NCBI GenBank assembly: GCA_963817895.1
Contig: CAWFQB010000003.1
Span: 544,001 to 608,000, forward strand
DNA from: an uncultured Chthonomonadaceae bacterium
GTDB taxonomy: Bacteria; Armatimonadota; Chthonomonadetes; Chthonomonadales; Chthonomonadaceae
DNA: 64,000 nt
Reading direction: 5' to 3'
Positions 6,076-42,886 of this stretch are shown here, piece by piece. The translations under genes were made by a program, and so were the position numbers. Position 1 is the stretch's first letter. Each line of letters opens with the position of its first letter. The notes beneath the pieces were generated by a model, which saw only the letters and a program-made list of their open reading frames with translations, searched no databases and was not told the origin of the DNA.

Positions 6076-6107
6076 TTAAGGCTGCTGTAAGGGAGGGGGT
6101 GTACACT
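6076..6107 (+). promoter_or_regulatory. putative SARP-dependent promoter: TTAAGGC-N4-GTAAGGG-N8-TACACT
   Basis: Heptamers at 6076-6082 and 6087-6093 (11-bp period), 8 nt spacer, -10-like TACACT at 6102-6107; divergent from regulator 1. Confidence 0.65.
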
Positions 6108-6163
6108 TAATCCAACAACGTAGTGAGAACGGCAGGAACGGCTCTCTTTTCGATTACGGATGT

Positions 6164-6437
6164 ATGCCTTACGGCTTACGGTTTCCTGTAACATTCGCGC
6201 CTGGACAACGCTTTTCCTTCCTTTCCGATAACGTGAACTTTACAGGCTTTCTGGCTGTCTCTGCGCGCGATAACAGCGGATGAAGAGGGAGGGTTCGTGG
6301 TAGCGCTGGATGCGGTAACGGCGACTATCAATGCCAACCGCCGCGTACAACTGGAGATTTGCGCTGGGCTTCAGGGCGATTCCACAATCCTGAGGATCGC
6401 CTATCAGGTGAACTTTCTGATCAAGAAGGCTTTGTAG
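6164..6437 (+). pseudogene. small hypothetical protein, frameshifted
   Basis: MPYGLRFPVTFAPGQRFSFLSDNVNFTGFL.. continues in another frame as SLRAITADEEGGFVVALDAVTATINANRRVQLEICAGLQGDSTILRIAYQVNFLIKKAL*. Confidence 0.35.
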
Positions 6438-6498
6438 ACAGTCCCCTGACTGTTCTGACAGGCATGTGTCCGGCGAGGCCGGAGAAGGAGTGCAAAAA

Positions 6499-6936
6499 AT
6501 GACAGCAGTGAAAAGCATCGTTGCAGCGCGCGAGCGCGACGCGGCATGGCTGGTCGCCCTGTACCTGGCCGTTTACGGCGGCGACCCTGCGCCCCAGGAA
6601 GGCGCCTTGATTGCGCAGGAGTTGCGGGAAGCCGCCGCGCTGAACGCTATTGCCGCCCTGTCGCTTGCGCTGGACGGCAAGGCCAAACAAGCAGTGCAGC
6701 AGGCCATCACGCCGCTGAAGCAGCAGCGCGAAATGCGGCATGTGGACGCGAAGGTCGCCGGAGAGCGGCTCGAGTCGTTTGGAATTCATATGGAAGAACA
6801 GGACGCCGCCCATCCTCATCACGTCGGGACAACGGAAGCATCCACGATACGCCCGCGGCTCCCCTACTGCATTCGCTTTCATGGAGTCGTCTACTGCGTT
6901 CCGATTCTCTCGCCCGGCCCTATTCTCTTTGAATAG
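6499..6936 (+). CDS. hypothetical protein with C-terminal Cys pair (YCIRFHGVVYCV)
   Basis: AAGGAG RBS upstream of ATG 6499; helical Ala-rich body. Confidence 0.7.
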   Translation: MTAVKSIVAARERDAAWLVALYLAVYGGDPAPQEGALIAQELREAAALNAIAALSLALDGKAKQAVQQAITPLKQQREMRHVDAKVAGERLESFGIHMEEQDAAHPHHVGTTEASTIRPRLPYCIRFHGVVYCVPILSPGPILFE

Positions 6937-7036
6937 CGCCTGAGCCTCAGACCTCCGGGCTGCAAAGCAAGCGCAGGGCGCAGAATACGCCCTGCGCCGT
7001 TCCTCAGAACCAGGAACAAAGAAAGGAGAAGCATCC

Positions 7037-7285
7037 ATGTCCGATCAGAATTATGGAACGAGCGCGAAGAAACTGCCTTCGTCGGAAGAAATCGAGGCTA
7101 TGGCCGCATTTCCGCAGGGCGCTCACAGCGATGCCGAATGTAACGCATTGTGTGACGACCTGCGCGAAACCGCAGATGCGCTTTCAGTCGCTCGCGCAGC
7201 GGATCGCCCCAGGCTAATTCTTCGGCTACAACTTATCAATCGGCATATGCGCGCGCTGCATTGCCGTATCTGCCTGCCGGAATGA
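7037..7285 (+). CDS. small hypothetical protein (CxxxC ... CxxC)
   Basis: AAAGGAG RBS; 82 aa; ECNALC and HCRIC. Confidence 0.7.
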   Translation: MSDQNYGTSAKKLPSSEEIEAMAAFPQGAHSDAECNALCDDLRETADALSVARAADRPRLILRLQLINRHMRALHCRICLPE

Positions 7286-7379
7286 GAATACAGACGCATA
7301 TGTTCGGTATGCGTCTGTCTAACTTCGGCATGGCGAAAGCGACTGCATTTCAACGCCCATTTAACGGTAAGGAAATACT

Positions 7380-8420
7380 ATGTTCACAAAACAAAATTTT
7401 GCGATAGCGGGCGTACTAACGCTCCTGGCACTGACTGCCCCTCACCCTGCAACGGCACAAGTGAGTTGGCAGTACAGTATCTTCAATGGGCCTGCCGCCA
7501 GCACGTTCTACCAGCCTGATGCCATCAACAATGCAGGAATTATTGCGGGAACGTACAGCAGTTCGACCTCGTCCGGCGTGTTCCTCATGCAGGGCGGAAC
7601 GTTCACGACCTTTGGCAACGGAGATACGCAGTTAAACGGCATCAATAACGCCGGGGACACGACCGGTTATTTTTACGATGCCGTTGCGGATGTTGAAACT
7701 CCCTTTGTTCGCGGGGCGAATGGAACCTTCTCTTTCCTGCCGAAGCTGGTCTATGGAGATGTTCCGCAAGCCCTCAATGATACCGGCAAAGTTGTCGGCT
7801 ACTCTACTGACGATTTCACCACAGTTCATGGCGCGATGTGGAGCGGCGGCATCGAGACAACCTCGGATTATCCCGGCGCAAGCGACACGGCCTACTACGG
7901 CATCAACAACGCGGGCAAGATCGTCGGCGATACCAACAACATCACCGGCAACGGCCCGCCCGAAGCCTTTGTGCTGGACAATGGGGTCTTCACGCCTTTT
8001 GTCATTCCCGGAGCGGACGTTACCATTGCAGAAGGCATCAACAATGCCGATCAGATACTGGGCCGATACGGGGACGCGAACGGCAGCTTTCACGGCTTCA
8101 TCCTGAACAATGGCATCGTGACCACGCTGGATTTTCCCGATCTTGACGCTCTCTTCGGGCTGACGTTCACCGACAGTAACGGCAAACTGTTCAATCGGCA
8201 AAGGCCGTTCACTATTCCGCTCGGCTTTAACGATAAGGAGGATTTTGTCGGCATCATCGGGGCTTCTTATGAGGGCGCGGATGGAACCGGCTTCTTTTTC
8301 CGCGAACACGGATTTATTGCCACAGCCGTACCCGAACCTGACAGCATCGCCCTCCTCGTAAGTATGAGCGTAACCGGAGTTGCCTTCGTCATGCGCCGCA
8401 GAAAGGTGAGGACGGCTTGA
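7380..8420 (+). CDS. PEP-CTERM surface protein with HAF-like GINN repeats
   Basis: Signal peptide; repeated (G/A)INN(A)G-I-G; VPEP + TM helix + RRRK tail. Confidence 0.9.
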   Translation: MFTKQNFAIAGVLTLLALTAPHPATAQVSWQYSIFNGPAASTFYQPDAINNAGIIAGTYSSSTSSGVFLMQGGTFTTFGNGDTQLNGINNAGDTTGYFYDAVADVETPFVRGANGTFSFLPKLVYGDVPQALNDTGKVVGYSTDDFTTVHGAMWSGGIETTSDYPGASDTAYYGINNAGKIVGDTNNITGNGPPEAFVLDNGVFTPFVIPGADVTIAEGINNADQILGRYGDANGSFHGFILNNGIVTTLDFPDLDALFGLTFTDSNGKLFNRQRPFTIPLGFNDKEDFVGIIGASYEGADGTGFFFREHGFIATAVPEPDSIALLVSMSVTGVAFVMRRRKVRTA

Positions 8421-8845
8421 ACGGTTCTCGCATCGCTCAGAACATGCCGAATAAAGCAGACCCTTCCGAGGCGGCGCTTTTCCAGGCGCGTTGGGCTTCG
8501 GGGCGCTATCACCATCGTCGCTGGTTTAGCGCCAACCGTTGTCTCGATGTGCGGCTGACATCGGGCGCTCTGCATACGCGCCTGATGTTTCCGTTTTCCC
8601 TTTTCTCCGCCACTCACCGGGGCTTCAAGAATACCATTCCTCTCATGCAGATAAAGGCCGTTCAGAAGGCGCGTTTTATGGGCTGGTGGGAAACAGTAGA
8701 AATTACCTTTGTGGATAACGAAGGCTGTAGCCGCTGTCTGGAAATTGGCTTTACCGGTCCTTTACCGCAGATAGGGACACATCAGCAGAAAACGCGCGAT
8801 GCCTTCATGCAAGCCATGCAAGAAGCGCTGGAAGCAACGGATTAG
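8417..8845 (+). CDS. hypothetical protein (PH-like?)
   Basis: ORF overlapping stop of the PEP-CTERM gene; no firm motif. Confidence 0.55.
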   Translation: MNGSRIAQNMPNKADPSEAALFQARWASGRYHHRRWFSANRCLDVRLTSGALHTRLMFPFSLFSATHRGFKNTIPLMQIKAVQKARFMGWWETVEITFVDNEGCSRCLEIGFTGPLPQIGTHQQKTRDAFMQAMQEALEATD

Positions 8846-8910
8846 CTTTATCTGGAGCAGCCTTCGTCATACGACGTAGAAATGCCGAGCTGCTGTAAAG
8901 GGACGGTCAA

Positions 8911-9432
8911 ATGACGCAAGTAGCCATTATAGGAAATGCAGGCGGTGGAAAGAGTACGCTCAGTCGTCGTCTCAGCCAGGTACTTGGTTTGCCTCTGCAT
9001 TTCATTGATTTGATCCAGTGGAAACCAGGCTGGATAGCGGCTCCTGCGGAGGAAGTCAGGCAGAAACACCAGGCGATTCTAGCGCAGAAAAAGTGGATCA
9101 TAGACGGATGGGGGAGTTGGGACAATATCGAGGCGCGCTTTGCGGTTGCCGATACCATCATCCTCATTGACTTCCCGCTTTACATTCACTACTGGTGGGC
9201 CATGAAGCGTCAGTTCATGTGCTTGTTCCGTCCGCGTCCGGATGGCCCGGAAGGATGTCCCATGCTGCCCATGACCTGGCGACTCTTGCAGCTGATGTGG
9301 ATGATCCATTATGAAATGCGTCCTCGCCTGTTGGAAATGATTGGGAGCCTGCCATCCAAAAAGCGAGTGTTTCATCTCCGCTCGCCACGAGAATTACGCC
9401 GCTTTGTCCGTGAACATTGTCCTGCCCCGTAA
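8911..9432 (+). CDS. adenylate-kinase-like P-loop protein (topology modulation protein/FlaR family)
   Basis: IIGNAGGGKST Walker A; WKPGW; WIIDG; ADTIILID. Confidence 0.85.
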   Translation: MTQVAIIGNAGGGKSTLSRRLSQVLGLPLHFIDLIQWKPGWIAAPAEEVRQKHQAILAQKKWIIDGWGSWDNIEARFAVADTIILIDFPLYIHYWWAMKRQFMCLFRPRPDGPEGCPMLPMTWRLLQLMWMIHYEMRPRLLEMIGSLPSKKRVFHLRSPRELRRFVREHCPAP

Positions 9433-9621
9433 ACCACAAGAAGATTAGCCGGAATTGCTGACGCCTGTATTCGCATTGCCGCCCCTCCTCATCGAACCTC
9501 GCCTCATCGTTCATTTTTCTCCATTTCTTCATCGGATGCAGGAATTTGCTCCAGGTGTAGCGAATTGTGCCACATTCGCCAAACGGCGCTTCTCAACTCA
9601 CTTCTTACACGAGGCTTAAAC

Positions 9622-10893
9622 ATGCACTCCAACGTTCCCGGTTTGCTGCGCGCAGGCGTTTTTGCGGCTTGTACGCTTGCGTCCGTTACTTTCGGTTCGG
9701 TCGAGGCGTCCGCTGCGCCCGCGCCGATGCTCAAAAAACAACCCGTCAAACGGCTGGCTTCCGCGCGGCTGCAAACCACGCCTAAAAAGCGGACGGAGAA
9801 AAAATCCAAAATGGACAAGATGATCGTTTACATCGGCACATACACGCAGGGCGCGAGCAAGGGCATTTACATCTATGACATGGATACCAAAACGGGGATG
9901 CTCACGCCCGCAGGCAACGCGCCGCTGGTTTCCAATCCCTCGTTTCTGACCATTGCGCCCGACCACAAGCATCTCTATGCCTGCAATGAAGTGGATGATT
10001 TCGACGCCGCCCATGAGGGCGCGGTCAGCGCGTTCGCCATTGACGCCAAAACAGGCGGGCTGACCCTGCTCAATCAGCAGCCGTCGGCGGGGGGGGGGCC
10101 GTGCTTTGTGTCTATGGACGCCAAAGGCAAAAACGTTCTGGTTGCCAACTACGGCAGCGGCAGCGTGGGCGTTCTGCCCATTGGCGCGGACGGCAAGCTG
10201 ATGCCGCCAAGCGACAAAAAGCAGCACGAGGGTAAGGGAACCGACCCGGCCCGACAGGAGGGGCCACACGCGCACTCCATCAATCTCGACCCCGCCAACC
10301 ATTTCGCGTTCGCGGCGGATTTGGGTTTGGACAAGGTGTTTATTTACCGCTTCGATGCGGCCAAAGGGACACTGACGCCCAACACGCCCGCGTTCGCGTC
10401 CGTCGCGCCCGGTTCCGGCCCGCGCCACCTGTCGTTCCATCCGAACGGACACTACGCTTACGTCATCAACGAAATGGCGTCCAGCGTGACCGCCTTCCAT
10501 TACGATGCCGCCAAAGGCAGCATGACCGAATTGCAGACGGTTTCTACCATTCCCGCAGGCTTTACGGGCGCGACGACGTGCGCGGAAATCCGGGTACATC
10601 CTTCCGGCAAGTTTTTGTACGGCTCCAACAGGGGACACGACAGCATTGCCATATTCACTATTGACGCGGATACGGGCAAACTGACCCCGGCAGGCCATCA
10701 GTCCACGCAGGGCAAAACTCCACGCAACTTCAACCTTGACCCGTCCGGGCAGTTCCTCCTTGCCGCCAATCAGGACTCGGACAGCGTGGTTGTTTTTCGC
10801 ATTGACGCGCAAACGGGCCAACTGACGCCCACCGGCCAAACGCTGAACATTCCCAAACCGGTGTGCGTGAAGTTCCTGACTCCGGGCAAATAG
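9622..10893 (+). CDS. pgl: 6-phosphogluconolactonase (lactonase beta-propeller), signal-peptide-like N-terminus
   Basis: YIGTYT, NPSFL, VANYGSG, RQEGPHAH, DLGLD, GPRH, SNRGHDSI, PRNF. Confidence 0.9.
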   Translation: MHSNVPGLLRAGVFAACTLASVTFGSVEASAAPAPMLKKQPVKRLASARLQTTPKKRTEKKSKMDKMIVYIGTYTQGASKGIYIYDMDTKTGMLTPAGNAPLVSNPSFLTIAPDHKHLYACNEVDDFDAAHEGAVSAFAIDAKTGGLTLLNQQPSAGGGPCFVSMDAKGKNVLVANYGSGSVGVLPIGADGKLMPPSDKKQHEGKGTDPARQEGPHAHSINLDPANHFAFAADLGLDKVFIYRFDAAKGTLTPNTPAFASVAPGSGPRHLSFHPNGHYAYVINEMASSVTAFHYDAAKGSMTELQTVSTIPAGFTGATTCAEIRVHPSGKFLYGSNRGHDSIAIFTIDADTGKLTPAGHQSTQGKTPRNFNLDPSGQFLLAANQDSDSVVVFRIDAQTGQLTPTGQTLNIPKPVCVKFLTPGK

Positions 10894-10924
10894 GCGCAGC
10901 CCTCAATCTGTGTTTCTCAATTCT

Positions 10925-10963
10925 GCCTTTGTTCCTTCTGTAACCTACAGAAGAAACAGAGGC
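10925..10963 (+). terminator. hairpin downstream of pgl
   Basis: GCCTTTGTTCCTTCTGTA / TACAGAAGAAACAGAGGC, 16/18 inverted repeat. Confidence 0.55.
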
Positions 10964-11159
10964 GCTTTGTTGCAGGCGTTATCGCTGAACTTGAACGCGA
11001 GCAGGTTTAGGCGCTGTATGTCATTTGGCAGAAGCAGTTATATGTAATAACATATATTTTGTCTTGGAACTATTAAGGAGGGTTGTTCAATTTGACGTGG
11101 GCGGCAAGATGTGGTACAAAAGTAGTGTTTTTCTTCTCCCACTAAAGCCCTGATGCTCT

Positions 11160-12485
11160 ATGCCTGAATCAACCCTGATAAAATCCGAAAATACTCTTTT
11201 GAAATCGCCGCCTGAAATAGCGGAGTCGCCTGTTGTCGCGCTGATACGCTCCCGTCAGCAATTGCAGGCTGATCCCGAAAACGCGACCGCTTTGTTCGAG
11301 GAGGCCGTTGCCCTGTGCCGACTGGGACAGTGGGAAGCCGCGCTCACAGCCTGGGAACAGGTGACGCGCCTGGAACCCGGCAACGTCTTCGCGTATCTGA
11401 ATCAGGGCATTGCCCATCTTCAGCGGGAACAGTGGCAGCAGGCGGAACAGGCGTTTGAAGCCGCGTTGCGCTATGCCCCGGAACATGCCGAAGCGCATTT
11501 TGGTCTGGGTATGGCTTATGCCCATCAGGAGCGTTACGAGCAGGCATACGCGGCCTGGCAGGAAGCCCTGCGTTTCGACCCCGCGCACCCGGAAGCCCAT
11601 GCCAACCTCTCGATGCTTGCGCAAATGTCCACAACGGAAGTGGAGTCTCTGAATTTCGGCTCGGCGCAAACCCTGCAATTCGATTGTATTGCAGGGTCTG
11701 AAAAGCCCGCGCAAAGCGAAGAGCGGCGTATCAAACTGCCGCCACTATCCGGGCCGCCGCTCGGCCAGATTGCCGATGCCGTTGTCGCCGCTCAGGAAGC
11801 GCGGGCGCAGGAGGGTGACGCCGCGCCTGCATCGTTATTCTCCGATGAACCCGCTGTGGAAGAGCGTCCCGAACCCACGCTTAAGCTGGATAGCAAGGCG
11901 TTGAAGCGGGAACACGCGCGACTGGCAGCAGAGGACAACCCTGCCCCGCGTCAAAAGCCTGCCGCCGGATGGCTGCGCGGCCCTGTTGCAGCCGTTGGCA
12001 TGGTTATCGCTGCCGTTATCCTGACATTATGGGGCGCAGGTCGCTTCCACGCGCCCGCCGCTCCCGGTTCTGCTTCCCATTCGACAATTGTAACGCCGCC
12101 GAATGCTTTGTCAAGCGTGTCCACGCCTGTAGCAATGCCGCCATCAGTGTTCCCGCCGGTTATTTCACCTGCTTTGGCGGTAAAACAACCCGTTATGCCA
12201 GCTACAGCATCTGCCATTCGCGCCCATACGCGCAAAACCATTCGCCATGCTCCCGCTTCTCACCGGCAGGAGGAAGCGAAGCCGGAAAGACACTCCCTGG
12301 CGAAAGAAACGTCTCACCCGTCTCGTCGTGTTCGGGAATCATCCGTTTCTGCTGCCCCCGCGCCTGCTCCTTCCCGCGCTTCAACCCGAAACCGTCAGGC
12401 GCATACAGACGAAGATACCTTTGCCGCGCATCGCCGCGCCGGCCACGCTGACAATTCTGAGGAATGGACGGATCGGATGCCTTAG
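11160..12485 (+). CDS. TPR-repeat membrane-anchored protein
   Basis: 3-4 N-terminal TPRs (AYLNQG, AHFGLG), single TM (VAAVGMVIAAVILTLWG), disordered Pro-rich C-terminus. Confidence 0.8.
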   Translation: MPESTLIKSENTLLKSPPEIAESPVVALIRSRQQLQADPENATALFEEAVALCRLGQWEAALTAWEQVTRLEPGNVFAYLNQGIAHLQREQWQQAEQAFEAALRYAPEHAEAHFGLGMAYAHQERYEQAYAAWQEALRFDPAHPEAHANLSMLAQMSTTEVESLNFGSAQTLQFDCIAGSEKPAQSEERRIKLPPLSGPPLGQIADAVVAAQEARAQEGDAAPASLFSDEPAVEERPEPTLKLDSKALKREHARLAAEDNPAPRQKPAAGWLRGPVAAVGMVIAAVILTLWGAGRFHAPAAPGSASHSTIVTPPNALSSVSTPVAMPPSVFPPVISPALAVKQPVMPATASAIRAHTRKTIRHAPASHRQEEAKPERHSLAKETSHPSRRVRESSVSAAPAPAPSRASTRNRQAHTDEDTFAAHRRAGHADNSEEWTDRMP

Positions 12486-12604
12486 AGTTTATCCCAATAG
12501 GCCGGGTACAGAGAACGTACCCGTCTGAGTGGCCTACGGCGTAGGGACATAACATGTTATGTCCTCCTTCGGACGCAAATGCAATCGCCTGTTGGGATAG
12601 GCTC
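12485..12604. mobile_element. 120-bp MITE with imperfect TIRs and TTA target duplication
   Basis: GAGTTTATCCCAATAGG (12485-12501) vs revcomp GAGCCTATCCCAACAGG (12588-12604), 14/17; TTA on both flanks (12482-84, 12605-07); internal palindrome GGACATAACATGTTATGTCC. Confidence 0.7.
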
Positions 12605-12654
12605 TTAGATCATTCTCACATACTGACAGGAAAATAGCGATAGGAAACGACTAT

Positions 12655-14253: not shown

Positions 14254-14299
14254 CTACAAGCCCTCACTCCTAAAGCAGATAATTTCAGGAAACCTGATT

Positions 14300-23774: not shown

Positions 23775-24917
23775 CTCACCTTACGCAGGCGAGCAGTTTG
23801 TAGTCACAGATTTGCTGTTGTTGACGGTAGAATAGTGTCATGGACAAACAACTTCTGGACCTTTACTCAGACTATCTCCTTTGTTCGTTCGGCCTGACTA
23901 CCGCGACGGGCCTTTCCACCCTGCTCGACGGCGCGATTAGCCACGACAAGATCACGCGGTTCTTGTCAGGACGTGACTTCACTTCTTCGGACCTGTGGCA
24001 TCTGGTCAAACCCTTGGTACGGCAGGTACAATGTGAAGACGCAGTTCTGGTCTTCGATGACAGCATCGAAGAAAAACTCTATACGGATGAAAGCGAACTC
24101 ATTTGCTGGCATTGGGATCATTGCTTCAACCGCAACGTGAAGGGCATCAACATTCTGACCTGTTTGTATCGTCGCGCCCACTGCCGCTCTGCCCGTTGCC
24201 TTCGAGTTGATCCAAAAGTCGGCTTGGGAAACGCATAAGAAGACGGGCAAACCCAAGCGAGTGTGTCCCAAGACCAAGAACGAATACCTGCGCGAGATGG
24301 TGGCGCAATGTCAGAAGAACCAATTGCCTTTTCGCTATGTCCTGGCCGACGCTTGGTTCAGCGCGGCAGAAACGATGATGCACCTCAAAAACGAAGGCAA
24401 AACCGACTTTATCTTCCCGATTAAGGCCAACCGCAAGGTGGCTTTGTCCCAGGAAGACAAGTTGGCAGGCCGCTATATGCCCGTATCCTCGCTTTGCTGC
24501 GAAGCGGACGCCGTATTGAACATCTGGCTGGAGGGGGTAAACTTCCCCCTTCTGCTGTGTAAGCAGGTCTTTACAAACAAGGACGGCAGCCAGGGCGTTC
24601 TCTATCTCGTGACGAGTGACACGACGTTAAGCGGTTGCGACATCCAGACGATCTACCAAAAACGGTGGAAAGTGGAAGAGTATCACAAATCGGTCAAGAG
24701 CAATGCGAGTTTCGCCAAGTCGCCGACCAAAACTATTCGGACCCAGAGCAACCATATCTTCGCCTGTTTATGGGCGTATGTGAAGTTGGAAAGTCTGCGT
24801 TTGCAGACGCGCTTGAACCATTTTGCGATGAAAGGCAGGCTCTACAAAGCGGCCCTTGCCAGCGCCTACCGCGAACTACAACTGCTCAAAGGCATGAGTG
24901 CGCCTGCGTAAGGTGAG
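23775..24917 (+). mobile_element. IS701-family insertion sequence
   Basis: Perfect 17-bp TIRs CTCACCTTACGCAGGCG (23775-91) / CGCCTGCGTAAGGTGAG (24901-17); flanks AATCTAA / AATTTAA. Confidence 0.9.
23840..24911 (+). CDS. IS701-family DDE transposase (frameshift near 24170)
   Basis: SHDKITRFL, VFDDS..EK, LADAWF, YQKRWKVEEYHK. Confidence 0.88.
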
Positions 24918-29518: not shown

Positions 29519-32197
29519 ACGCGACAGCCTGTAGATAAATCTGTTACCGCCGATGTTCTGTGGCGCGTCCGCCTGTTGGAGGGGCCGCTGCTGGAAGATT
29601 CCGGCGGGCAAATCGCGCGCCGTTTTCGGTCGCAGCGCGTCGGCGCGCTGCTGGCTTATCTTGCCCTGCGTCTGGGCCGTCCCTGTCCGCGCGAAGAGCT
29701 ATATGACGCGCTCTGGCCCGAAGAGTCCGATGCGCGCGTGATCGCCAATCGCCTGCGCGTCAGCCTCGCGTCCCTGCGTCGGCAACTGGAGCCGCCCGGT
29801 GTCGCATTCGGAACGGTTCTGGATGTCAGTGATACGGGGCGCATCCGCCTGCGCGCGGAAACTGTCTGGTGCGATGTCATTGCTATAGAGGCCGCAATGC
29901 AGGCAGGCCGCAAAACGGAAGCCGCGCGCCTGCTGACCGGAACGCTGTTGCCGGGTTACTATGACGAATGGGTACTGGCGGCGCGAGCGCGTTGGGAAGT
30001 CCTGCGCGAGGAATGGGAACCGTTGCGGCGTTCGGATGTCGAACCCGAACGGCCCTCTGTTCCAGCCATTCGGCAGGAGTTTGAAAGGCGTTTTGCTTCC
30101 CCGCTGCCCGCCTACCTCACGCGCTTTTTCGGCAGGGAGGCCGAACTCGAAGCGCTGTTCACTCTGCTTTGCGCCCATCGTTTGGTGACGCTGACCGGGC
30201 CGGGAGGCATGGGCAAAACCCGCCTTGCTGTGGAAGCCGTCCGGCGCTCCGATCTGCCTCCCGTCTGGGTTCCGCTTGCCGAAGGAACCGCGCCCGCCTT
30301 TGTTGCCGAAGCGATTTTACGCGCGCTCCACGTCACGCCCATGCTGGAACAGGACCTGGTGGAACAGATTATTGCGGTTCTCCTCCGGCGTGAACCCGTT
30401 CTGCTTCTCCTCGACAATGCGGAGCCTCTCGTGGAAACTGTTGCCGATGTCGCCGCGCGGCTGCTGCAAGCCGTTCCCGAACTTGTTATATTTGTTACCA
30501 GCAGGCAAGCCCTCAATGTGGTTGGCGAAAGCCTGCTGCCGCTCGGTTCTATGGAGATTCCCGCTTCGGACACCCCGCCGGAGAATTTCAATCACATTCC
30601 CGCCGTCGCGCTTCTGGTGGATCGCGCCCGCGGCGTTCGCCCGGATTTCATGTCTGCCCCGCGCCATGCCGCTCCCCTCCTGCATATTTGCCGCCTGCTC
30701 GAAGGCATGCCACTTGCCCTCGAACTCGCCGCCGCCCGTATGGTCGCGCAAACGCCCGCGCAAATCGCCGCGTCGCTCGAAGCGGACTTACTGCAATTGA
30801 AGTCACAGCAACACGGTTTTGCTGCCCGCCACCGTTCCCTGCGCGCCGCCATTCAGGGCAGCGCGGATTTGCTCGATGCGGAAACGCGCTTCTTGTTCGC
30901 CAACCTGTCAATCTTTCAGGGCGGATGGACATTGGAAGCGGTTCGCGCGGTGACGGACTGCGAACAGGCCGAGTCCCTGCTGTCCGACCTGACGCGCCGT
31001 TCCCTGACGCGATGGGTTGAAGACACGAAAACCGGAAGTTTGCGCGGCGCGTTTCTGGAGGCCATTCGCCAGTTTGCCGCCGAGCAGGTGACCCCGTCGC
31101 AGCGCGAAAACCTCGCCCGCCGCCATGCCGATTATTATTTGACGCTGGCCGGCGAAGTTTCGGAAGACGATGTGGACAGCCTGATCCCGCTGGATGCGGA
31201 ACAGGAAAATCTGCCGGCAGCTTTGGAAACCGGTTGGCGCGAACCGTCCGAACGGTTCTGGCCTGCCCTGCGCGGCGCATTGATTTACGCGCATGTGCGC
31301 GGCCTTCACCGGAGGTATCTGCCCTGGGCGGAACGCGCTCTCGCATCTGCCATCAACGCGCCCGACGCCGCCACGCGAACCCGGCTGCGTTTTGCCGCAT
31401 ACACCATCTTCTCGTATGTCGGGCAGTTGGGACGCCTTCGTCCCATTGGCGAAGAGATGCAGCGCGACGCCGATGTCAGCAACAGCCTTTTCGCGCAGGT
31501 ACACGCGCAGTTGATACATTGCTGGGTTTTGGGCGTTACGCGCGAGTTTCAAGCCTTTGCAATTCTCGCGCGACAGACGCTCGAAAAGGCGCGGCTTCTG
31601 GAGGACCAATCCGCTCTGCGCCGCGTCCTCCGCATCACCGGGTTTCTCCTGGGTGTCTACGGCACGGAAATTTCTCCACGCGACCCGGAAGCCGCCCTCG
31701 TGATATGGCAGCAGAGCGAATGGCTGCTCCGCGAATTCCTTGCCACCGCCCCAACCCGTTCCACGCATCTTCCCTATATCAAAAATTCCCTGGTATCCGC
31801 GCTCCGGGCGCAGGGACAGGAAGCCGAAGCCTACGCGATGCTCAAAGACGCGCAGCAAACCGCGCTGGCGCAGGAAAACTACTCCCTGCTCCTTTTCGCA
31901 TTTCGAGAGGAGGCGCGTTTCGTCTTCGCGCAGGGGCAATTCGCCTATGCCGCGCTTCTGTACGGAGCGTACTACGCCCTCAAGGAACGCAACGGATATA
32001 ACATGAACCCCGGCAGTTTGTCCGAGGATGCGCCGCCCGAAACCCTCCCCGCGCTGCTTCCTCCGGGCCAGTACCTACGCCTGCTACAGCAGGGCGGAAA
32101 AATCTCCCTTGCGGTTCTCGCCGCGCTTTCTATGTCCCATCCGCCCCTGTTCGACGCCGATGCCCACTTCCTCACTCCGCCTGACGCCCCGGTGTAA
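29519..32197 (+). CDS. SARP/AfsR-like regulator 2 (wHTH-BTAD + ATPase + helical repeats)
   Basis: LWRVRLL..LLAYLAL..REELYDALWP; GPGGMGKT; LLLLDNAE; GMPLALELAAAR. Start uncertain: ACG 29519 lies 8 nt after AAGGAG. Confidence 0.88.
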   Translation, partial: TRQPVDKSVTADVLWRVRLLEGPLLEDSGGQIARRFRSQRVGALLAYLALRLGRPCPREELYDALWPEESDARVIANRLRVSLASLRRQLEPPGVAFGTVLDVSDTGRIRLRAETVWCDVIAIEAAMQAGRKTEAARLLTGTLLPGYYDEWVLAARARWEVLREEWEPLRRSDVEPERPSVPAIRQEFERRFASPLPAYLTRFFGREAELEALFTLLCAHRLVTLTGPGGMGKTRLAVEAVRRSDLPPVWVPLAEGTAPAFVAEAILRALHVTPMLEQDLVEQIIAVLLRREPVLLLLDNAEPLVETVADVAARLLQAVPELVIFVTSRQALNVVGESLLPLGSMEIPASDTPPENFNHIPAVALLVDRARGVRPDFMSAPRHAAPLLHICRLLEGMPLALELAAARMVAQTPAQIAASLEADLLQLKSQQHGFAARHRSLRAAIQGSADLLDAETRFLFANLSIFQGGWTLEAVRAVTDCEQAESLLSDLTRRSLTRWVEDTKTGSLRGAFLEAIRQFAAEQVTPSQRENLARRHADYYLTLAGEVSEDDVDSLIPLDAEQENLPAALETGWREPSERFWPALRGALIYAHVRGLHRRYLPWAERALASAINAPDAATRTRLRFAAYTIFSYVGQLGRLRPIGEEMQRDADVSNSLFAQVHAQLIHCWVLGVTREFQAFAILARQTLEKARLLEDQSALRRVLRITGFLLGVYGTEISPRDPEAALVIWQQSEWLLREFLATAPTRSTHLPYIKNSLVSALRAQGQEAEAYAMLKDAQQTALAQENYSLLLFAFREEARFVFAQGQFAYAALLYGAYYALKERNGYNMNPGSLSEDAPPETLPALLPPGQYLRLLQQGGKISLAVLAALSMSHPPLFDADAHFLTPPDAPV

Positions 32198-32248: not shown

Positions 32249-32280
32249 CTAATGCGTGGTTAATGCCTCTGTGTTATAGT
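32249..32280 (+). promoter_or_regulatory. putative SARP-dependent promoter: CTAATGC-N4-TTAATGC-N8-TATAGT
   Basis: Heptamers 32249-55 and 32260-66; -10 at 32275-80; directly downstream of regulator 2 and upstream of a PEP-CTERM gene. Confidence 0.7.
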
Positions 32281-32451: not shown

Positions 32452-33382
32452 ATGATAACCACCCTAAGATTCTCACCGCGAAAATGGGTTCCTGGCCTGT
32501 CTGTACTGGTGCTGCTGCCCCTGTGCCACAAAGCGACCGCGCAACATTCGATGTTCTCCGAGTCAATTGTCGGTGTGAACAACGGCGGGTACATCGCCAG
32601 TCTCGACTTTAGTTACGTCACGGACAATTCAACGGCTTCTGCTTACGCCATGCCCTCGTTCACCGGAATGGATGGCATGGGAAACACGCAGACGATGACT
32701 TTCACGGGCAGCACCGTTTCCCAATCGGATTACGGCAGGCTACACGTCTTGACGACGGGAACGCTCGCCAACTCCTACTACAACGTCAACAATCAGCCCT
32801 ATGCCAATGCCAATGGTAATATCATCAACACCGCAGGCTCGCCTACCTCCCTGACGACATTAGGCTTTGCGGTCTTCAACGACACGCTTCAATATGGAGG
32901 AGCGCTGCAAAGCGGATACAAAGCCCGCTATATTTTCCATGTAGATGGAACCAACTCCGGCACAGGCACGTTGGCGGATTTGGAACGTCACCGTGGATAC
33001 CAATCCGAGCGAAGGTTTTTTTGACTCCAATCTCGGACCTATTTCCACCGATTGGGTGACGCAAGACTACGCTGTCAACGGCATCGTTCCTCAGAACATC
33101 AACGTTCAATTCTCAGACCAAACTGTCTTCAACACCTATGACCTGACCGATGAACAGAACTACAGCGGCGCCTCGAACTTTTCCTCCACCCTCACGCTGG
33201 CGGGCATTGAACTGGTAGACAGCAATGGTAATCTCGCGTCCGGCTGGACGGTCACTTCCGCATCCGGCACACGCTACAATGCAATTCAGGGTATTCTCGT
33301 TCCCGAACCGGGAAGTATGGCGCTTTGCATCGGACTGGCAAGCGTTGGCGCAGGCTTGTATGGCAGGCGACGGCGCAAATAG
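32452..33382 (+). CDS. PEP-CTERM surface protein (frameshift near 32985)
   Basis: Signal peptide in first ORF; VPEPGS + TM + RRRRK in second ORF. Confidence 0.85.
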
Positions 33383-35662: not shown

Positions 35663-35857
35663 AATATAGAAAGGAAAAAGTCGGATACTGCTGAAAGGTG
35701 TGCTGAAGATTGAAGTGTTTTCGTACTCTCATCCTGTATTTGAGTGGATATAAAGGATTTTGCCCTCGCTTGGAAAATTACAATGATGATGTAACTTTTC
35801 AGGCGTAAGCCCCTGTCAGTAATTTCATAGTAAGTAAACTCTGTGAGGTAGTAAAAG

Positions 35858-36851: not shown

Positions 36852-36979
36852 CATGAAGTTTCTCTTCATCTGGAGCCTACCTGCACTCCTTACCGCAACG
36901 CCTGAAGTTTGCAGGAATTCCTCACTCCATTCGCTAATCTCTCCTTGTGGAAATTCGACTATCGCAAGGAGATTGCTTT

Positions 36980-38536
36980 ATGCCTCTGAAAATCGCTATG
37001 ATTGGAGCCGGGAGTATCGGCTTCACGCGCCGTCTGATGGCCGACCTGCTCACTGTGCCGGAGTTTGCCGACACGACGTTTGCCTTTACCGACCTCAACG
37101 CCCACAATCTAGACATGGTGCGCCAGCTTGCCGAGCGCGACATTGCCCACAACCACCTGCCCGCCAAAATAGAAGCCACGACTGACCGCCGAGCCGCCAT
37201 TGCCGACAGCGATTATGTGATCTGCATGATCCGGCAGGGCGGGCTGGAAGGCTTCCAGACCGACATTGACATTCCCCTCAAGTACGGCATTGACCAGTGC
37301 GTGGGCGATACCATTTGCGCGGGCGGCATCATGTACGCGCAGCGCGGCATTGCGGCCCTGCTGGACTTTTGCAAGGACATTCGCGAAGTGGCAAAGCCCG
37401 GCGCGCTGTTTCTGAACTACTCCAACCCGATGGCGATGCTGACATGGGCGTGCAACAAATACGGCGGCGTCAAGACCGTCGGCCTGTGTCACGGCGTTCA
37501 GGGCGCGCAGCACCAGATTGCCGATTGCGTGACCCACTGGGCGAAGGGGAAGGGCATTATCGGGGAAGACGAGAAGGTACACCGCCGGGACATTGAGTTC
37601 ACGTTCGCGGGCATCAACCATCAAACGTGGTGCTTAAAGGCCGTATGGCGCGAGTACGATTTGATTCCCATGCTGCTCGACCTGTTCCAATCCCACCCCA
37701 AATACCCGACGACGGAAAAAGTCCGCATTGACGTGCTGAAACGCTTCGGCTACTACTCGACCGAAAGCAACGGGCATCTGTCCGAGTACGTCCCCTGGTA
37801 TCGCAAGCGGCTGGATGATATTAACAAATGGATTGATTTGAGCACGTGGATCAATGGCGAAACGGGCGGGTATCTGCGCGTCTGCACCGAAGGCCGCAAC
37901 TGGTTCGAGACGGATTTCCCCAACTGGATGTCACAGGAACCGCCCACGTTCACTCCCGAAAAGCGCAGCGACGAACACGGCAGTTACATCATCGAGGGGC
38001 TGGAAACCGGGCGGACGTACCGGGGCCATTTCAATGTGCCGAATACGGGCATCATTACCAACCTGCCGGACGGCTGCATCATTGAATCGCTGGGATTTGT
38101 GGATCGCAACGGCATCAATATGGCGCACATCGGCGACCTGCCGCTCGCCTGCGCCGCAACGTGCAATGTTTCGGTCAACGTGCAGCGCATGGGCATGGAA
38201 GCGGCTGTTCACGGCGACGTGACGCTGCTAAAACAGGCCATGCTGCACGACCCGCTCGTTGGCGCGGTTTGCGATCCCGAAGAGGTGTGGCAAATGACAG
38301 ACGAGATGCTCGTGGCGCAGGCCGAATGGCTGCCGCAGTACGCTTCGTCTGTTCCCGCCGCGCAAGCGCGACTTGCGGAGCATGAGGCGAATGGAACCCG
38401 CGTAAAGACGATGGAGGGTTTTGCGGGCATGGCGCGGCTGCACACCAAAACGGTCGAGGAGATGGCCGCCCAAAAAGAGGAAGCCCGAAAGAACGCGCAG
38501 GCCGCCGACAAAGGCAAAATGACGCAGAATGCCTGA
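36980..38536 (+). CDS. glycoside hydrolase family 4 alpha-galactosidase/glucosidase
   Basis: IGAGSIGF, DIDIPLKYG.DQCVGDT, NYSNP, GLCHG, GINH, TESNGHLSEY. Confidence 0.92.
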   Translation: MPLKIAMIGAGSIGFTRRLMADLLTVPEFADTTFAFTDLNAHNLDMVRQLAERDIAHNHLPAKIEATTDRRAAIADSDYVICMIRQGGLEGFQTDIDIPLKYGIDQCVGDTICAGGIMYAQRGIAALLDFCKDIREVAKPGALFLNYSNPMAMLTWACNKYGGVKTVGLCHGVQGAQHQIADCVTHWAKGKGIIGEDEKVHRRDIEFTFAGINHQTWCLKAVWREYDLIPMLLDLFQSHPKYPTTEKVRIDVLKRFGYYSTESNGHLSEYVPWYRKRLDDINKWIDLSTWINGETGGYLRVCTEGRNWFETDFPNWMSQEPPTFTPEKRSDEHGSYIIEGLETGRTYRGHFNVPNTGIITNLPDGCIIESLGFVDRNGINMAHIGDLPLACAATCNVSVNVQRMGMEAAVHGDVTLLKQAMLHDPLVGAVCDPEEVWQMTDEMLVAQAEWLPQYASSVPAAQARLAEHEANGTRVKTMEGFAGMARLHTKTVEEMAAQKEEARKNAQAADKGKMTQNA

Positions 38537-38720
38537 GATATTCGTGGAGTAGGACGTTCCTGATGCGCCGCGCTTTGCGACAATCCGTTCGTGTTCACCA
38601 CGAATTTCGACGTGGCAACTGCGGCGTCATCGGAACCGATACAGGGCGGAAATACGGTCAATCATTCTCTGCCCCTGAATTATCCATAAACATCGCCGGA
38701 AGGCGCGTGCCTACGGAAGG

Positions 38721-39578
38721 CTAAACTCTATCCAGCGCTCCCATAACTCCCGCTGACGGTTCGCTTGCGGATTCATCCTCCGGCAACAGGGGGTAGATCA
38801 GTTGGTCAAGCAGGGAAGGGGGCAAAGTGGCTTCGATCCCATACGAGTCGGGCCATTCGTTCGGCAGGTTGTGCGTGCCGAAGAGACGGTCCAGCCAGGG
38901 GAAGACGGAAGCGTAGTTGCGGTTGATTGGCCCGGTTCTGGTGTGGTGCCAGTGGTGAAACTTCGGGGTGGATACCAGCCATTCCAGAAGGCCGAAGCGC
39001 CAGCGCAGGTTGGCGTGAATGAGAAATCCCCACAACGTGCCGATAAGAATCACCACAACCGGAAGCGCGCTGCCGCCCGACGCGCTTGACGGGCCAGCCA
39101 GTCCCAGCATGACCATCGGCACAATTCCGCAAAACCGGCTGAACACCATGTCCAGCGGATGCGCGCGCGTGTTGACCAGAAAATCTACCTCTTCCGCGCT
39201 GTGGTGTATCGCATGAAAACGCCACAGGAACGGATTTTCGTGGCTCCAGCGATGCCCCCAGTAATAACCGATTTCCCCTGCAACAAGTCCGACTGCAACC
39301 CGCGCCCAAAAGGGGAGTGATCCTGTGAAAGCGAAAACGCTTTCGGGTACGACATGTCGGACCGACCATCCCAGAAGCGCTACCGGCACACTTAACAAAG
39401 CGGCGGGAACCAGACTGCTGATAAAGTAGTAGCAGAGGTCAAGCCCAATACCTTTTCGCAGCCCTGTGTGGGCATGGACGGCAAAAAAACGCTCCAGTGG
39501 CACAAAAATAACGACCAGAATCGCCAGCCACACGGAGAGCCGAAAGATGCTGAGTAACAAGACTAGAATGGGTGCCAT
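38721..39578 (-). CDS. sterol desaturase / fatty acid hydroxylase family protein
   Basis: His boxes HRWSH, HAIHH, H(ANL), HHWHH; multiple TM helices. Confidence 0.9.
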   Translation of the reverse strand: MAPILVLLLSIFRLSVWLAILVVIFVPLERFFAVHAHTGLRKGIGLDLCYYFISSLVPAALLSVPVALLGWSVRHVVPESVFAFTGSLPFWARVAVGLVAGEIGYYWGHRWSHENPFLWRFHAIHHSAEEVDFLVNTRAHPLDMVFSRFCGIVPMVMLGLAGPSSASGGSALPVVVILIGTLWGFLIHANLRWRFGLLEWLVSTPKFHHWHHTRTGPINRNYASVFPWLDRLFGTHNLPNEWPDSYGIEATLPPSLLDQLIYPLLPEDESASEPSAGVMGALDRV

Positions 39579-39672
39579 CAGGTACTATCCCGGCGCGTTG
39601 ATGAAGGGGACTGGAATGTAGGCAAAACAGCCGCTCGAACATCAACGAAACGTGTCCTCGGTTGATTTATTA

Positions 39673-39723
39673 CCGTTGCAACGGCCCGAAGCAGGATGAA
39701 ACATCTTCGGGCCGTTGCAACGG
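39673..39723. terminator. perfect 19-bp hairpin between PEP-CTERM and desaturase genes
   Basis: CCGTTGCAACGGCCCGAAG / CTTCGGGCCGTTGCAACGG. Confidence 0.55.
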
Positions 39724-39751
39724 CAGGGTGAAGTCTGCGCGAATGTCAGTC

Positions 39752-40489
39752 TTACTTCGCGGATTTCGCGGACCGGGCGCGGCGGCGGACGAAAACGCCG
39801 GAGCCGACAACGCCGATGAACAGCGCGGCCAGAGCCGTTGGTTCCGGCACGGCGGCGACGGATACGCCGTCCAGCAGGGAGAACGGGGGTTCGCCCGCCG
39901 GTGTGCCTACCGCCAGAAACGACAGCAACTGACTGGTGGAATGGGCGGTGTACGTGAACGTCTGCGCCTGCCAGCCGGTGAAACCGTGCTCGGCGTTATC
40001 CAGGAGGGCCGTGGACTGCATATCGCCTCCGAAACTCACCTTGAACTGCTCCTTAGTCGCGCCGCTACGCCCCAATTGCTGCGCGCCGGCCCAGTAGAAA
40101 CTGACGGCATATTTGTTGCCCACAATCAGGTTGGTGACGGTTTGTTGAATAGGCTGTATTTGAAAGCCTCCATCCAGCGCGACGAAATTGCCGCCATTGG
40201 GGCTGGACACAGGCATCCCGTTGGCAGAGCCATCGTTCGGCCCCCAGAGTTTGACAGTTCCATACTGGCCGACTGCGCCGGTTGTATCCGCAGTTCCCGA
40301 AGCGAACAGGAAGGCGTAACCCCCGGACGGCACGGTCCAACCTGTCGCTGTGGTGTTGTAACTCAACTGGCCGTTGCCGTTTGTGGTCGCCTCAAAACCT
40401 CCATTGAGCAGCGTCTGCGCCCGCGCGACGCCGGACATGCCGATGAACAATCCCATTACCGCACTACCAATTTTTACCTTTTTTGTCAT
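39752..40489 (-). CDS. PEP-CTERM surface protein (galactose-binding-like fold)
   Basis: Signal peptide, LLNGGFE, VPEPT + TM + RRRAR; GGAAAG upstream. Confidence 0.9.
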   Translation of the reverse strand: MTKKVKIGSAVMGLFIGMSGVARAQTLLNGGFEATTNGNGQLSYNTTATGWTVPSGGYAFLFASGTADTTGAVGQYGTVKLWGPNDGSANGMPVSSPNGGNFVALDGGFQIQPIQQTVTNLIVGNKYAVSFYWAGAQQLGRSGATKEQFKVSFGGDMQSTALLDNAEHGFTGWQAQTFTYTAHSTSQLLSFLAVGTPAGEPPFSLLDGVSVAAVPEPTALAALFIGVVGSGVFVRRRARSAKSAK

Positions 40490-40980
40490 GTGTCTTTCCT
40501 CTGTAGAATGAATCGCCATCGCCGAATTCGGGATGGACACGCCTTCGCATCTACTTGACAGACTGTATCCTGTAATAAATACATCAACGCGCTTCGCAAC
40601 ATCTATCGAAGTATGTACATGCCATTTTCGCGCTAATATGTCGAAATCTATAGGCGTGATGCTGCGAATCGGGTATATCTGCCGGAGAAATGTCTGCTTG
40701 ACATGAGAATATTAGCGGGAGTAGAGGCCGGACGTTTACGGGGTGGCGAAGGGAAAGTGTCAGGTTGGAAACGGATAGGGGCAGATGCGGCGCGTTCTTT
40801 AGCGCGCTGTTTTGAAGGGATGTGAGAAAAAAGGTTATGAGAAGGGATATGGCGGGAAACCGGTGAAATACCTGCTGCGCAAGCCGGGTGGCCTGCGCGG
40901 CAGGATACGAAAAGCGTGTGAAGATACGCGAAACAGGATTACATGGTGAAGAGGGGACAATGCCCGAAATTCCGCGTCGC

Positions 40981-41400
40981 TTAATTCTTGAATTTGGAGG
41001 CTTCCTTCGCGAGATGGGGGGCGAGCATTTCGGCGGAAAATCGGACGAACTGTGTGGGCGGTTTCACGGTGGGCCTGAAGAGGCACAGGAGTCCCTGCTG
41101 AAGGTCTTCACAATAGATCACGTTCGCCATTGCGCCATTGATGGTCATGCCGCCGTGAATGAAGTTGTATTCCTTCACTCGTATCAGGCGCAGGTTGTCC
41201 AATTTTACCCGATCCGTTTTGAAAATCTGGCCGCCGATCTGCCCCAGCAGTTGCAGTAGGAGTTCGTTTTCGGCAGGTTCGCCCACGTCGAAGAATTTTG
41301 GGTCTTCCCCGAAATGGTCGAAGAAATATTCAAAGACTTCGGAGAAATCTTTCGCCGTAGAAATTTTAAAGCGCAACGTTTCGAGCAGGGAAATGTCCAT
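40981..41400 (-). CDS. hypothetical protein
   Basis: 139-aa ORF, YFFDHFGEDP.F; protein-like composition. Confidence 0.7.
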   Translation of the reverse strand: MDISLLETLRFKISTAKDFSEVFEYFFDHFGEDPKFFDVGEPAENELLLQLLGQIGGQIFKTDRVKLDNLRLIRVKEYNFIHGGMTINGAMANVIYCEDLQQGLLCLFRPTVKPPTQFVRFSAEMLAPHLAKEASKFKN

Positions 41401-41578
41401 TGGTTTGTGTCTTTCGTCAGTCAGGGTTGTGGGATAATTAGGTCCGATCTGCAATGATAGTTCGTCATTTTGCGCCTACATTCCTTTTACCAGCAGTTTT
41501 GTTTTTGGAGGCATCGCATCACGCGCTGAAGTTCGCGCCAAATTTGTCAGGATGCGGTTTGCAAATTCATTTTAACTT

Positions 41579-42729
41579 TTATGCGTACACGCGGCGCAGG
41601 TGAAATTCCAGGCGGTAGTGAGCCTGTCCGCAGCGTACATCGAGGAATTTAACCACATCCTGTTCGCCATTGATCTGGCGCGCGGTTTCCACCTCCTCGC
41701 GCGTCCACTTGAGCGTGGTCATGCCCATCAGGGTATCATGGCCGCATCCTGCAATCGTTTCCTGAACATGATCTTTCAGCGCAGGACATAAATCGGGTTG
41801 CGTCAAATCCGTTTTCCCCAGGAACTCGCGATCCATGACGATGCCGCTCCACAATTCCGTTGCCTTGTGTTCGCCCCATTCGTCGGGCGTCTGCACAGCG
41901 TAACTATTCACATCCCAGCGCTTGCCCAACAATCCGTGACGGAAGTTGTTGACGTTGCCCAACCCGATATGGAACACGGAGTTCTCCGGATTGGTGACGG
42001 GCTGAACCTGTCCCGCATCGTCGCGCCTGCCACCCATCATCAGTTCCGATTCGACGCGCATGGAGCTGTGTACGTCCTCATACGCGCCATGCGCAATGGT
42101 CTTCCAGTTCTGGCTGTCTGCGGCTATACCCAGCAGATAGGGATAATCCGCCTCGCCGGACTTTGACGTTCGCAGGCACTTCAAGCCTTTGAACAGCGAT
42201 AAATAGAGAGGCTTTTGAACGGGCAGAACCGTAAGGATAACCGCGTTGCTCCGCGCCCCGTCCTCGGCTTCAACAAGGGTCAGGCGATAATCCCCTTCGC
42301 AGAGTTGTTCGGGTAAAGTAACGCTTTTCAGCGTGTTCCAGCCGTAAGCGTCCAATTGCTGCGGCGAACCGAAAGGATTGTTCAGCGGTTCCAGAATGGC
42401 GGTCGCCTGCGCGGGCAGATCGCAGCCATGCGCGTACAGCGTTTCGCCGGACAGAATGACATGCGCGCCCTCGGCTTCATGCCCCGTTTCCCGCGCTTTT
42501 CTGGAAAACACGGCGTCAATCGTCGGCAGCGTTTCGGCAGGATTGTCGCGTCCGGTTGCGAGAAGGTGCGTAATCGTCAGCGCGTCCGGCAGGCGAACGG
42601 GAAACACATCCGTATTCGGCGCGTTGGGAAAACCGACGCTTCTGCCTGCGTCCCAATTTTCGTCGGCGCGGACGAGAACGACATCAGGTATGTCGCGTCA
42701 GAAGTATTTTGTTCTTGAACAGCAATCAT
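41579..42729 (-). CDS. hypothetical protein with Ig/IPT-like N-terminal region (frameshift near 42700)
   Basis: AAGGAG RBS before ATG 42729; P.IDAV..G..V.LSG..L and RSNAV.LTV patterns. Confidence 0.6.
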
Positions 42730-42821
42730 TGGTTGGCTCCTTGAAGATGAATAAGATAGGATTTGACTGACTGCGCGTTGCGTCATGTGTTGTCGCCGCA
42801 TTTCAGGTCAGGTTCGTGGCT

Positions 42822-42886
42822 ATTTTAATCTGCCTGCGTCATGAAAACGCTTTAGATGTGTCAGAATACTGTTATATTAGCGTTAT
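42822..42886 (-). promoter_or_regulatory. putative SARP-dependent promoter with four in-phase heptamers
   Basis: Minus strand: ATAACGC, ATAACAG, CTGACAC, (one non-matching slot), ATGACGC at 11-bp phase, then 8 nt, then TAAAAT (42822-27); divergent from regulator 3. Confidence 0.7.

Follow-up and report, generated by a model that had tools for sequence, protein, structure and literature searches.

We analyzed a 64,000-nucleotide stretch of the 7.48-Mb genome of an uncultured Chthonomonadaceae bacterium (contig CAWFQB010000003.1 of assembly GCA_963817895.1, positions 544,001 to 608,000; hereafter the window, C3:544001-608000 of the genome that we label G000), which carries genes for three regulators belonging to the SARPs (Streptomyces antibiotic regulatory proteins), each beside a promoter-like box of direct repeats. 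Pairs of SARP proteins probably bind the adjoining 11-bp repeats of such boxes and switch on promoters that are devoid of a -35 element, and residue 87 of the recognition helix, helped by residues 84 and 88, is predicted to set which repeat is read. Boxes of this layout are concentrated beside SARP genes in the window's genome and its relatives, and one base of the repeat covaries with residue 87 in held-out genes.

AfsR-like regulators and the boxes beside them

2981..6040, minus strand: regulator 1, a SARP (winged helix-turn-helix, wHTH, plus BTAD)-nucleotide-binding oligomerization domain (NOD)-tetratricopeptide repeat (TPR) protein with the helix NSLSVALNALRK (Ser87, Val88), in three frames
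6076..6107, plus strand: box 1, TAAGG twice at 11 bp, 8 nt and a predicted -10 hexamer TACACT, divergent from regulator 1
29558..32197, plus strand: regulator 2, a short-BTAD SARP-NOD-TPR protein with the helix NRLRVSLASLRR (Asn84, Arg87, Val88), start codon uncertain
32249..32280, plus strand: box 2, TAATG twice at 11 bp, 8 nt and a predicted -10 hexamer TATAGT, downstream of regulator 2
42822..42886, minus strand: box 3, an array of five positions in 11-bp phase, 8 nt and a predicted -10 hexamer TAAAAT, divergent from regulator 3
42903..46175, plus strand: regulator 3, a full SARP-NOD-TPR protein with the helix LRLRQVLNTIRR (Leu84, Arg87, Gln88)

All three boxes stand where a first-pass annotation of the window had placed them. 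Box 1 consists of TTAAGGC (6076-6082) and GTAAGGG (6087-6093) followed by TACACT (6102-6107), and box 2 of CTAATGC (32249-32255) and TTAATGC (32260-32266) followed by TATAGT (32275-32280). Box 3 reads ATAACGC (42886-42880), ATAACAG, CTGACAC, a degenerate AAAGCGT and ATGACGC (42842-42836) before TAAAAT (42827-42822), so that its cores are, in order, TAACG, TAACA, TGACA, a degenerate fourth and TGACG. The geometry had been described as identical at the three sites, which holds for boxes 1 and 2 (11 bp, 8 nt), whereas box 3 is a degenerate array of loose fit; 11 bp from its proximal unit no good partner is found, and our strict caller does not call it. Under a generic matrix derived from 88 sites of other genomes only, box 1 ranks 3rd, box 3 71st and box 2 85th genome-wide. 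The contig of a relative has no listed change in box 1, but just 8 changes fall within 298 nt of this alignment.

A generic detector that asks for a 7-mer repeat at 11 bp (at most 1 mismatch) and 8-9 nt to TAnnnT, without any sequence consensus, finds the layout in the flanks of 13 of the 32 SARP-headed genes in the window's genome versus 87 of 3,996 called genes; exact repeats are present in 5/32 and 15/3,996, respectively. The layout is thus commoner beside SARP genes than beside control genes, as the proposal of the first-pass annotation requires. Among 295 flanks of the relatives' genes, 48 match at period 11, the remaining periods between 7 and 24 yield 0-7 apiece, and the spacer length peaks at 8-10. 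Held-out genes with both flanks show the same pattern: 35 of 94 match at period 11, against 0-4 for any of the periods 8-10 and 12-16; period 22 accounts for 7. Among 101 called boxes, 44 are divergent from the regulator and 57 lie just after it, and the -35 consensus is absent: 99 of them match TTGACA at no more than 3 of 6 positions. At the sequence level, these sites have the arrangement by which SARP promoters are recognized, namely, direct repeats at 11 or 22 bp, the last one 8 bp from the -10 hexamer, and a weak -35 region. This geometry as such is already known. In a second clade of paralogs in the window's genome, with IxLFG starts (for example, C4:601757, C1:1178476, C1:698518, C6:45644 and C6:54961), we observed other periods, that is, repeats at 12 bp (GGACACG, TCATG) or GGAAC at 22 bp, not 11 bp.

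The closest named relatives of the host are mostly Chthonomonadaceae, Chthonomonadales and other Armatimonadota, and judging from these matches, the genome probably belongs to Armatimonadota, in agreement with its first-pass description as seemingly non-actinobacterial. The suspected expansion of the family is also real: the genome encodes 31-32 SARP-headed paralogs (AfsR-like SARP-NOD-TPR), and SARP matches are present in 63 of the 68 genomes of the class, with up to 82 matches in G011. In profile scans, all three window regulators contain wHTH, P-loop NTPase and TPR parts, as expected of the paralogous SARP-ATPase-TPR proteins that they had been taken for; the wHTH was identified by Trans_reg_C in regulators 1 and 2 and by alignment of the helix to AfsR in regulator 3. 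The N-terminal OmpR-type wHTH followed by BTAD that marks a SARP is found in regulators 1 and 3. The predicted structure of regulator 3 (pLDDT 84.7) matches the SARP domain of AfsR at a target TM of 0.85, and the best match of the whole model is the STAND protein PH0952 (6MFV; E 3.3e-13); a single-sequence PDB search with the NOD returned no significant match. Walker A, Walker B and GxPL motifs are present in 206, 193 and 157 of 209 full-length relatives, respectively, consistent with the SARP-NB-ARC-TPR architecture. The F/Y-HD (MHD) latch is missing, with the FHD of AfsR aligned to MLE of the profile; the regulators have MLE, FLE and LLV, and LE occupies this position in 128 of the 209 proteins. 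Furthermore, the AfsR ortholog model NF053617 (cut-off 1430 bits) yields 58 bits for regulator 3 and 56 bits for the C-terminal piece of regulator 1. The three proteins are SARP-family regulators with a probably AfsR-like working mode, but not AfsR orthologs.

Regulator 1 is distributed over three reading-frame pieces (5426-6040, 4740-5453 and 2981-5134). Because one-base indels at 4977 and 5468 preserve a single frame in a relative's contig that is ~93% alike, and because 14 of the 32 paralogs of the window's genome are spread over more than one frame, an assembly error appears to be the likelier cause. Regulator 2 retains only the first part of BTAD, with ~110 residues missing and no Pfam BTAD match. 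The short BTAD recurs in 39 of 262 relatives, and by this recurrence, regulator 2 thus represents a natural class of short-BTAD SARPs.

Covariation of the recognition helix with the repeat

Helix positions follow the AfsR numbering, fixed by alignment, and base positions are counted from the hexamer. Rules relating helix to box were set down before the held-out data were fetched, after the sites had been sorted by recognition helix. The first-pass annotation had suggested that the heptamer, which differs in its fifth base, covaries with the helix, and the held-out sites bear this out. Under rule 1, Ser87 was accompanied by G at -11 in 5 of 5 sites and Arg/Lys87 by C/T in 20 of 20 (p 1.9e-5). 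This T-anchored register mis-set the boxes of Leu88 proteins, and a helix-blind register took its place; even so, its caller sets the register wrongly or picks the wrong site for two Ser87 genes in the window's genome. With the helix-blind register, G at -11 occurs in 8/9 Ser87 versus 0/26 Arg/Lys87 held-out genes (p 3.8e-7), and in 19/23 versus 0/35 training genes. When 1,089 pairs of protein column and base were ranked, 87 x -11 came out on top (z 30.3), followed at a distance by 87 x -10 (12.9) and 84 x -13 (12.1). Reducing the set to one gene per cluster at 55% identity left G at -11 with Ser87 in 13 of 15 genes and with Arg/Lys87 in 0 of 36. Finally, in the cases where the nearest relative, determined with the helix masked, differs at position 87, the base went with the residue of the protein itself 21 times out of 23.

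The code predicted from these alignments pairs Ser87 (and most Asn87) with G at -11, as in regulator 1 with TAAGG; Arg/Lys87 with C, as in regulator 3 with TAACG/TGACG; and Asn84-Arg87-Val88 with T, as in regulator 2 with TAATG. Post hoc, Asn84-Arg87-Val88 is found with TAATG in 6 of 7 cases, regulator 2 counted, while all 7 cases of Leu84-Arg87-Val88 have C at -11. Matrices for the classes S87-V88, N84-R87-V88 and R87-Q88 were built from other genomes; with 5, 6 and 15 sites they are small, and the training loci that first drew attention to the helix classes are among these sites. Under these matrices, in this order, box 1 has genome ranks of 1, 11 and 299, box 2 of 49, 2 and 371, and box 3 of 3,619, 2,024 and 22. 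Judged by these ranks, each window site fits its own helix class best, and this is the G/T/C difference at the fifth heptamer base.

Several observations weigh against such a code or its use by the window regulators. Rule 3 (Thr88 with G at -12) and rule 4 for Gln88 (with G/C at -13) largely failed, at 3/8 and 4/12 held-out sites, Val88 being found with A at 4/5; rule 2 (Asn84 with T) was followed at 3/6, and then only together with Val88, a condition added once the test was done. Within the window's genome alone, G at -11 gives 2/4 versus 0/8 (p 0.09). A called site is present in only 93 of 251 genes with both flanks and missing from 158, with a strict caller that overlooks 22-bp, 12-bp and degenerate arrays, box 3 among them. 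As assembled, regulator 1 is broken by two indels, and regulator 2 has no equivalent of the BTAD helices that in AfsR hold region 4 of sigma and the C-terminal domain of the RNA polymerase alpha subunit. Trees, built from 77 rows x 249 columns and from 80 of 100 rows x 698 columns (the other 20 had no long unbroken NOD and were excluded), are star-like and provide 5 and 2 independent pairs on well-supported branches, none contrary but not significant. The structures of AfsR are divided on the residue itself. R87 and T88 of AfsR align to helix positions 87 and 88 of the window's family and touch the corresponding portion of the afs box (PMC10936776, PMC11301090); R87 is placed above base pairs -35 to -33, and -36 is read by T88 (PMC10936776), which by our count are -12 to -10 and -13 from the hexamer. 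The same source assigns R87 to backbone phosphates rather than bases (PMC10936776), and a second structure paper lists it among the probable base contacts (PMC11301090).

These points leave a modest chance that the boxes are real SARP sites whose link to the helix reflects shared descent or indirect readout instead of a direct, portable code. In favour of this are the scarcity of independent contrasts, the clustering at 50% identity, which leaves 25 units with p from ~4e-4 to 1e-3, and the backbone contact of R87 in one structure. However, position 87 stands far above every other column, its residue changed at least 10-15 times on the best trees, and the protein's own residue beats that of the nearest neighbour 21 to 2. 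In addition, L103 (Arg87, TGACG) is nested in a well-supported clade whose Ser87 rows carry G at -11. We therefore favour direct reading of the repeat by residue 87.

Genes beside the boxes and regulators

6499..6936, plus strand: unknown 145-aa open reading frame (ORF), the first long one after box 1
7037..7285, plus strand: possible 82-aa ORF, mechanical ORF call only
7380..8420, plus strand: HAF-repeat protein with a signal-like N terminus and a PEP-CTERM-like tail (TIGR02913 above cut-off; PEP-CTERM model weak)
32452..33382, plus strand: PEP-CTERM-type exported protein after box 2, in two overlapping frames (32452-33024 and 32945-33382)
39752..40489, minus strand: PEP-CTERM protein, choice-of-anchor C-like, the third gene after box 3 (TIGR02595 above cut-off)
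41579..42728, minus strand: protein after box 3, in two pieces (42576-42728 and 41579-42607)
46223..46561, plus strand: single-domain globin of 112 aa, directly after regulator 3

The cargo had been described as PEP-CTERM surface proteins and unknown proteins rather than an antibiotic cluster, and scans of the ORFs in the window and in its relatives agree. The 145-aa ORF has no family match and no usable atlas match. Box 3 faces two unknown ORFs and then a PEP-CTERM gene; the pieces at 41579..42728 are probably one gene split by a frameshift, for which the atlas search gave a weak lead only, to a TIG-domain cluster (score 0.86). Of 92 PEP-CTERM-like ORFs, 13 have a SARP gene within 4 kb (null mean 4.3; reached in 6 of 2,000 shuffles). 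Among the 87 first ORFs after the relatives' boxes, 43 have signal-like starts by a rough pattern, 5 of the 39 complete ones have a PEP-CTERM end, and 4 are prepilin-like. Pfam analysis of 53 of these 87 ORFs revealed no antibiotic-type biosynthetic enzymes; what it did find were propellers, repeats, carbohydrate-binding modules, one globin and one H-NOX domain. Likewise, no polyketide synthase, nonribosomal peptide synthetase or similar enzyme was found among 54 window ORFs scanned, so that nothing marks the window proteins as cluster-situated regulators.

Each regulator had been expected to activate its own neighbouring cargo. Boxes do lie beside the regulators, but near-identical ones also occur far from any SARP gene. 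Near-copies of box 2 precede genes for exported-looking proteins on C10 and C12 (3 hits versus a control mean of 0.08), and copies of another paralog's TAGGA box stand ahead of two distant PEP-CTERM genes (C6:348504 and C3:143463); a matrix scan of the genome found no distant copy of box 1. Among the relatives' loci examined, regulators 1 and 2 have no close ortholog with the same cargo.

For regulator 3, the divergent gene had been proposed as the target; relatives instead keep the downstream globin beside the SARP gene. A SARP gene is followed directly by a globin gene in G000, G011, G042, G065 and L232; G011 and L232 have a TAACG/TGACG-type box between the two genes, and G065 has a weaker one. 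The second globin gene of the window's genome (G000:C1:1617900-1618217) has an array closely resembling the first three units of box 3. Globin matches are present in only 6 of the 68 genomes, and the window copy (46223-46561) seems to be cut by a frameshift near its end. Oxygen or nitric oxide is a possible signal for the globin-coupled clade. At L095:4896-5180, an Asn84-Arg87-Val88 regulator has a TAATG box directed at an H-NOX (haem-NO-binding) gene.

Other box-like sites and window features were also observed. Between box 1 and the first cargo ORF, the relative's contig has 1,181 different letters in place of 41 nt (6198-6238), a gene or insertion element that the relative has and the window lacks. 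A box-like pair at 7346-7367 (two AACG units, 11 bp) was rejected as a promoter, its hexamer overlapping the start codon at 7380; in this site (7346-7381), the two units immediately precede the ribosome-binding site of the PEP-CTERM-like gene. At G000:C5:644737 (L447), no called gene is faced by a clean TAGGA box that has TATAAT; with ~280 nt to a convergent gene, it possibly serves a small RNA or peptide. Box-like sites precede prepilin-type (FTLIELLVV) genes at G000:C1:1629465, C5:517391, C11:301418 and C1:379653, some of which may be chance hits of the generic matrix. The window further contains a family B DNA polymerase in two overlapping frames (53321-55890), probably an assembly frameshift; an AAA_15/AAA_21 ATPase followed by an unknown 211-aa ORF (47293-49335), possibly a defence pair; a PIN-domain gene with a small partner (50655-51291); and a DDE transposase (24207-24911). 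Elsewhere, the 16S rRNA gene (L001, 1,704 nt match) seems to contain two inserted hairpin-like stretches of ~80-90 nt, at about 1720-1800 and 3020-3110.

Mode of action, known relatives and meaning

AfsR is activated through a ligand at the TPR domain and release of the NOD, and recruits RNA polymerase via region 4 of sigma and the beta flap (PMC10936776). By analogy, a ligand at the TPR domain of the Armatimonadota proteins would lift autoinhibition by the NOD, and two SARP heads would sit next to each other across the -35 region (-40 to -19), where they would hold sigma region 4 and the beta flap and so recruit RNA polymerase. Helix residue 87, helped by 84 and 88, would set which repeat a paralog reads. 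Each paralog would control a small regulon, comprising the neighbour and, for some, distant genes with the same box; exported or PEP-CTERM proteins would make up most of the targets, with globins as targets of the regulator-3 clade. Residues that contact RNA polymerase or DNA in AfsR are kept, including an acidic residue at 71 (270/345) and at 76 (292/345) and W74 (337/345). The pattern that contains the equivalent of R173 could be located in all but 138 of 301 proteins; 139 of these 163 have R at the position, and all three window proteins have the equivalent. The missing -35 consensus and the kept acidic residues of the helix-turn-helix loop are consistent with recruitment of the AfsR type.

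The same sites could be bound mainly for repression, with the -35 region covered and the upstream regions of regulators 1 and 3 overlapped, which we consider improbable. The distance from box to start codon is 36-67 nt for regulator 1 and 17-81 nt for regulator 3, regulator 2 is without much of the activation domain, and the box after C5:644709 faces no called gene. Repression would not, however, account for the fixed distance and orientation to the -10 hexamer of the cargo, the absent -35 consensus, the position of 57 of 101 boxes downstream of the regulator or the R173 equivalent in the three window proteins; moreover, boxes accompany short-BTAD proteins as often as long-BTAD ones (10/29 vs 64/169). 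It is very improbable that the repeats are read by another factor, such as an alternative sigma factor or a response regulator of the OmpR/PhoB type, a group that also binds 11-bp direct repeats, or that they are post hoc chance, for which one may cite the 20-27 hits per control period that the generic matrix gives above score 17 far from SARP genes: the sites are concentrated beside SARP genes and covary, in held-out data, with their helix.

Activation by paired SARP heads, the reading that we prefer, has its closest counterpart in AfsR of Streptomyces coelicolor (PDB 8HVR, 8K60 and 8JKE), with which the window's family shares the SARP-NOD-TPR order (profile match E 2.7e-53), W74, acidic 71/76 and R94, as well as the frequent location of the target beside the regulator. 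The afs box of afsS likewise consists of two 11-bp repeats whose end is 8 nt from the -10 hexamer, with a poor -35 region (PMC10936776, PMC11301090), and T at -14 and A at -12 are common to it and the boxes of the window's family. In contrast, the host phylum is different, the cargo consists of surface and exported proteins instead of antibiotic clusters, R92 of AfsR is replaced by a small residue, and a short-BTAD class exists. The SARP-LAL regulator PimR reportedly uses heptamer repeats of the small-SARP type. The small SARPs ActII-ORF4, DnrI and RedD also share heptamer repeats at 11/22 bp, 8 nt from the -10 hexamer (PMC10936776), but these and PimR are without a NOD-TPR part of the present type and are situated in biosynthetic gene clusters. 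According to a preprint (bioRxiv 2026.09.02.748808), Streptomyces has at most ~12 paralogs, versus ~32 in the window's genome, and AfsR has an F/Y-HD latch, where the window's family has M-L-E. The STAND regulator PH0952 resembles the present proteins in NOD, arm and TPR sensor and differs in the output, here an N-terminal SARP head on direct repeats. MalT is another STAND one-component regulator with a TPR sensor. PEP-CTERM genes with a dedicated regulator next to them are known from Proteobacteria, where PrsK/PrsR is a sigma-54 two-component pair, whereas our analysis predicts, for each gene set, a one-component activator of the sigma-70 type.

What is known of SARP activators is mostly their part in regulating antibiotics in actinomycetes, the group in which they mainly occur (preprint 2023.09.04.556155). 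Our literature search, outside which most subscription journals lay, returned no account of SARPs in Armatimonadota and no residue-to-base recognition code for SARPs. Whether Armatimonadota have turned the AfsR design into many one-component sensors, insulated by a portable helix code (84, 87, 88) and coupled to globins in one clade, we regard as an evenly balanced question. As specificity would be set by the helix class and thus common to all its members, paralogs with like helices may cross-talk. The hundreds of natural protein-box pairs open the residue-to-base rule to a direct binding test. If true, the code would explain how dozens of paralogs avoid cross-talk and would make SARP activators retargetable by one to three substitutions. 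It would also make regulons of a poorly studied, almost uncultured soil phylum predictable from protein sequence, and would point to the control of many PEP-CTERM surface proteins in Armatimonadota.

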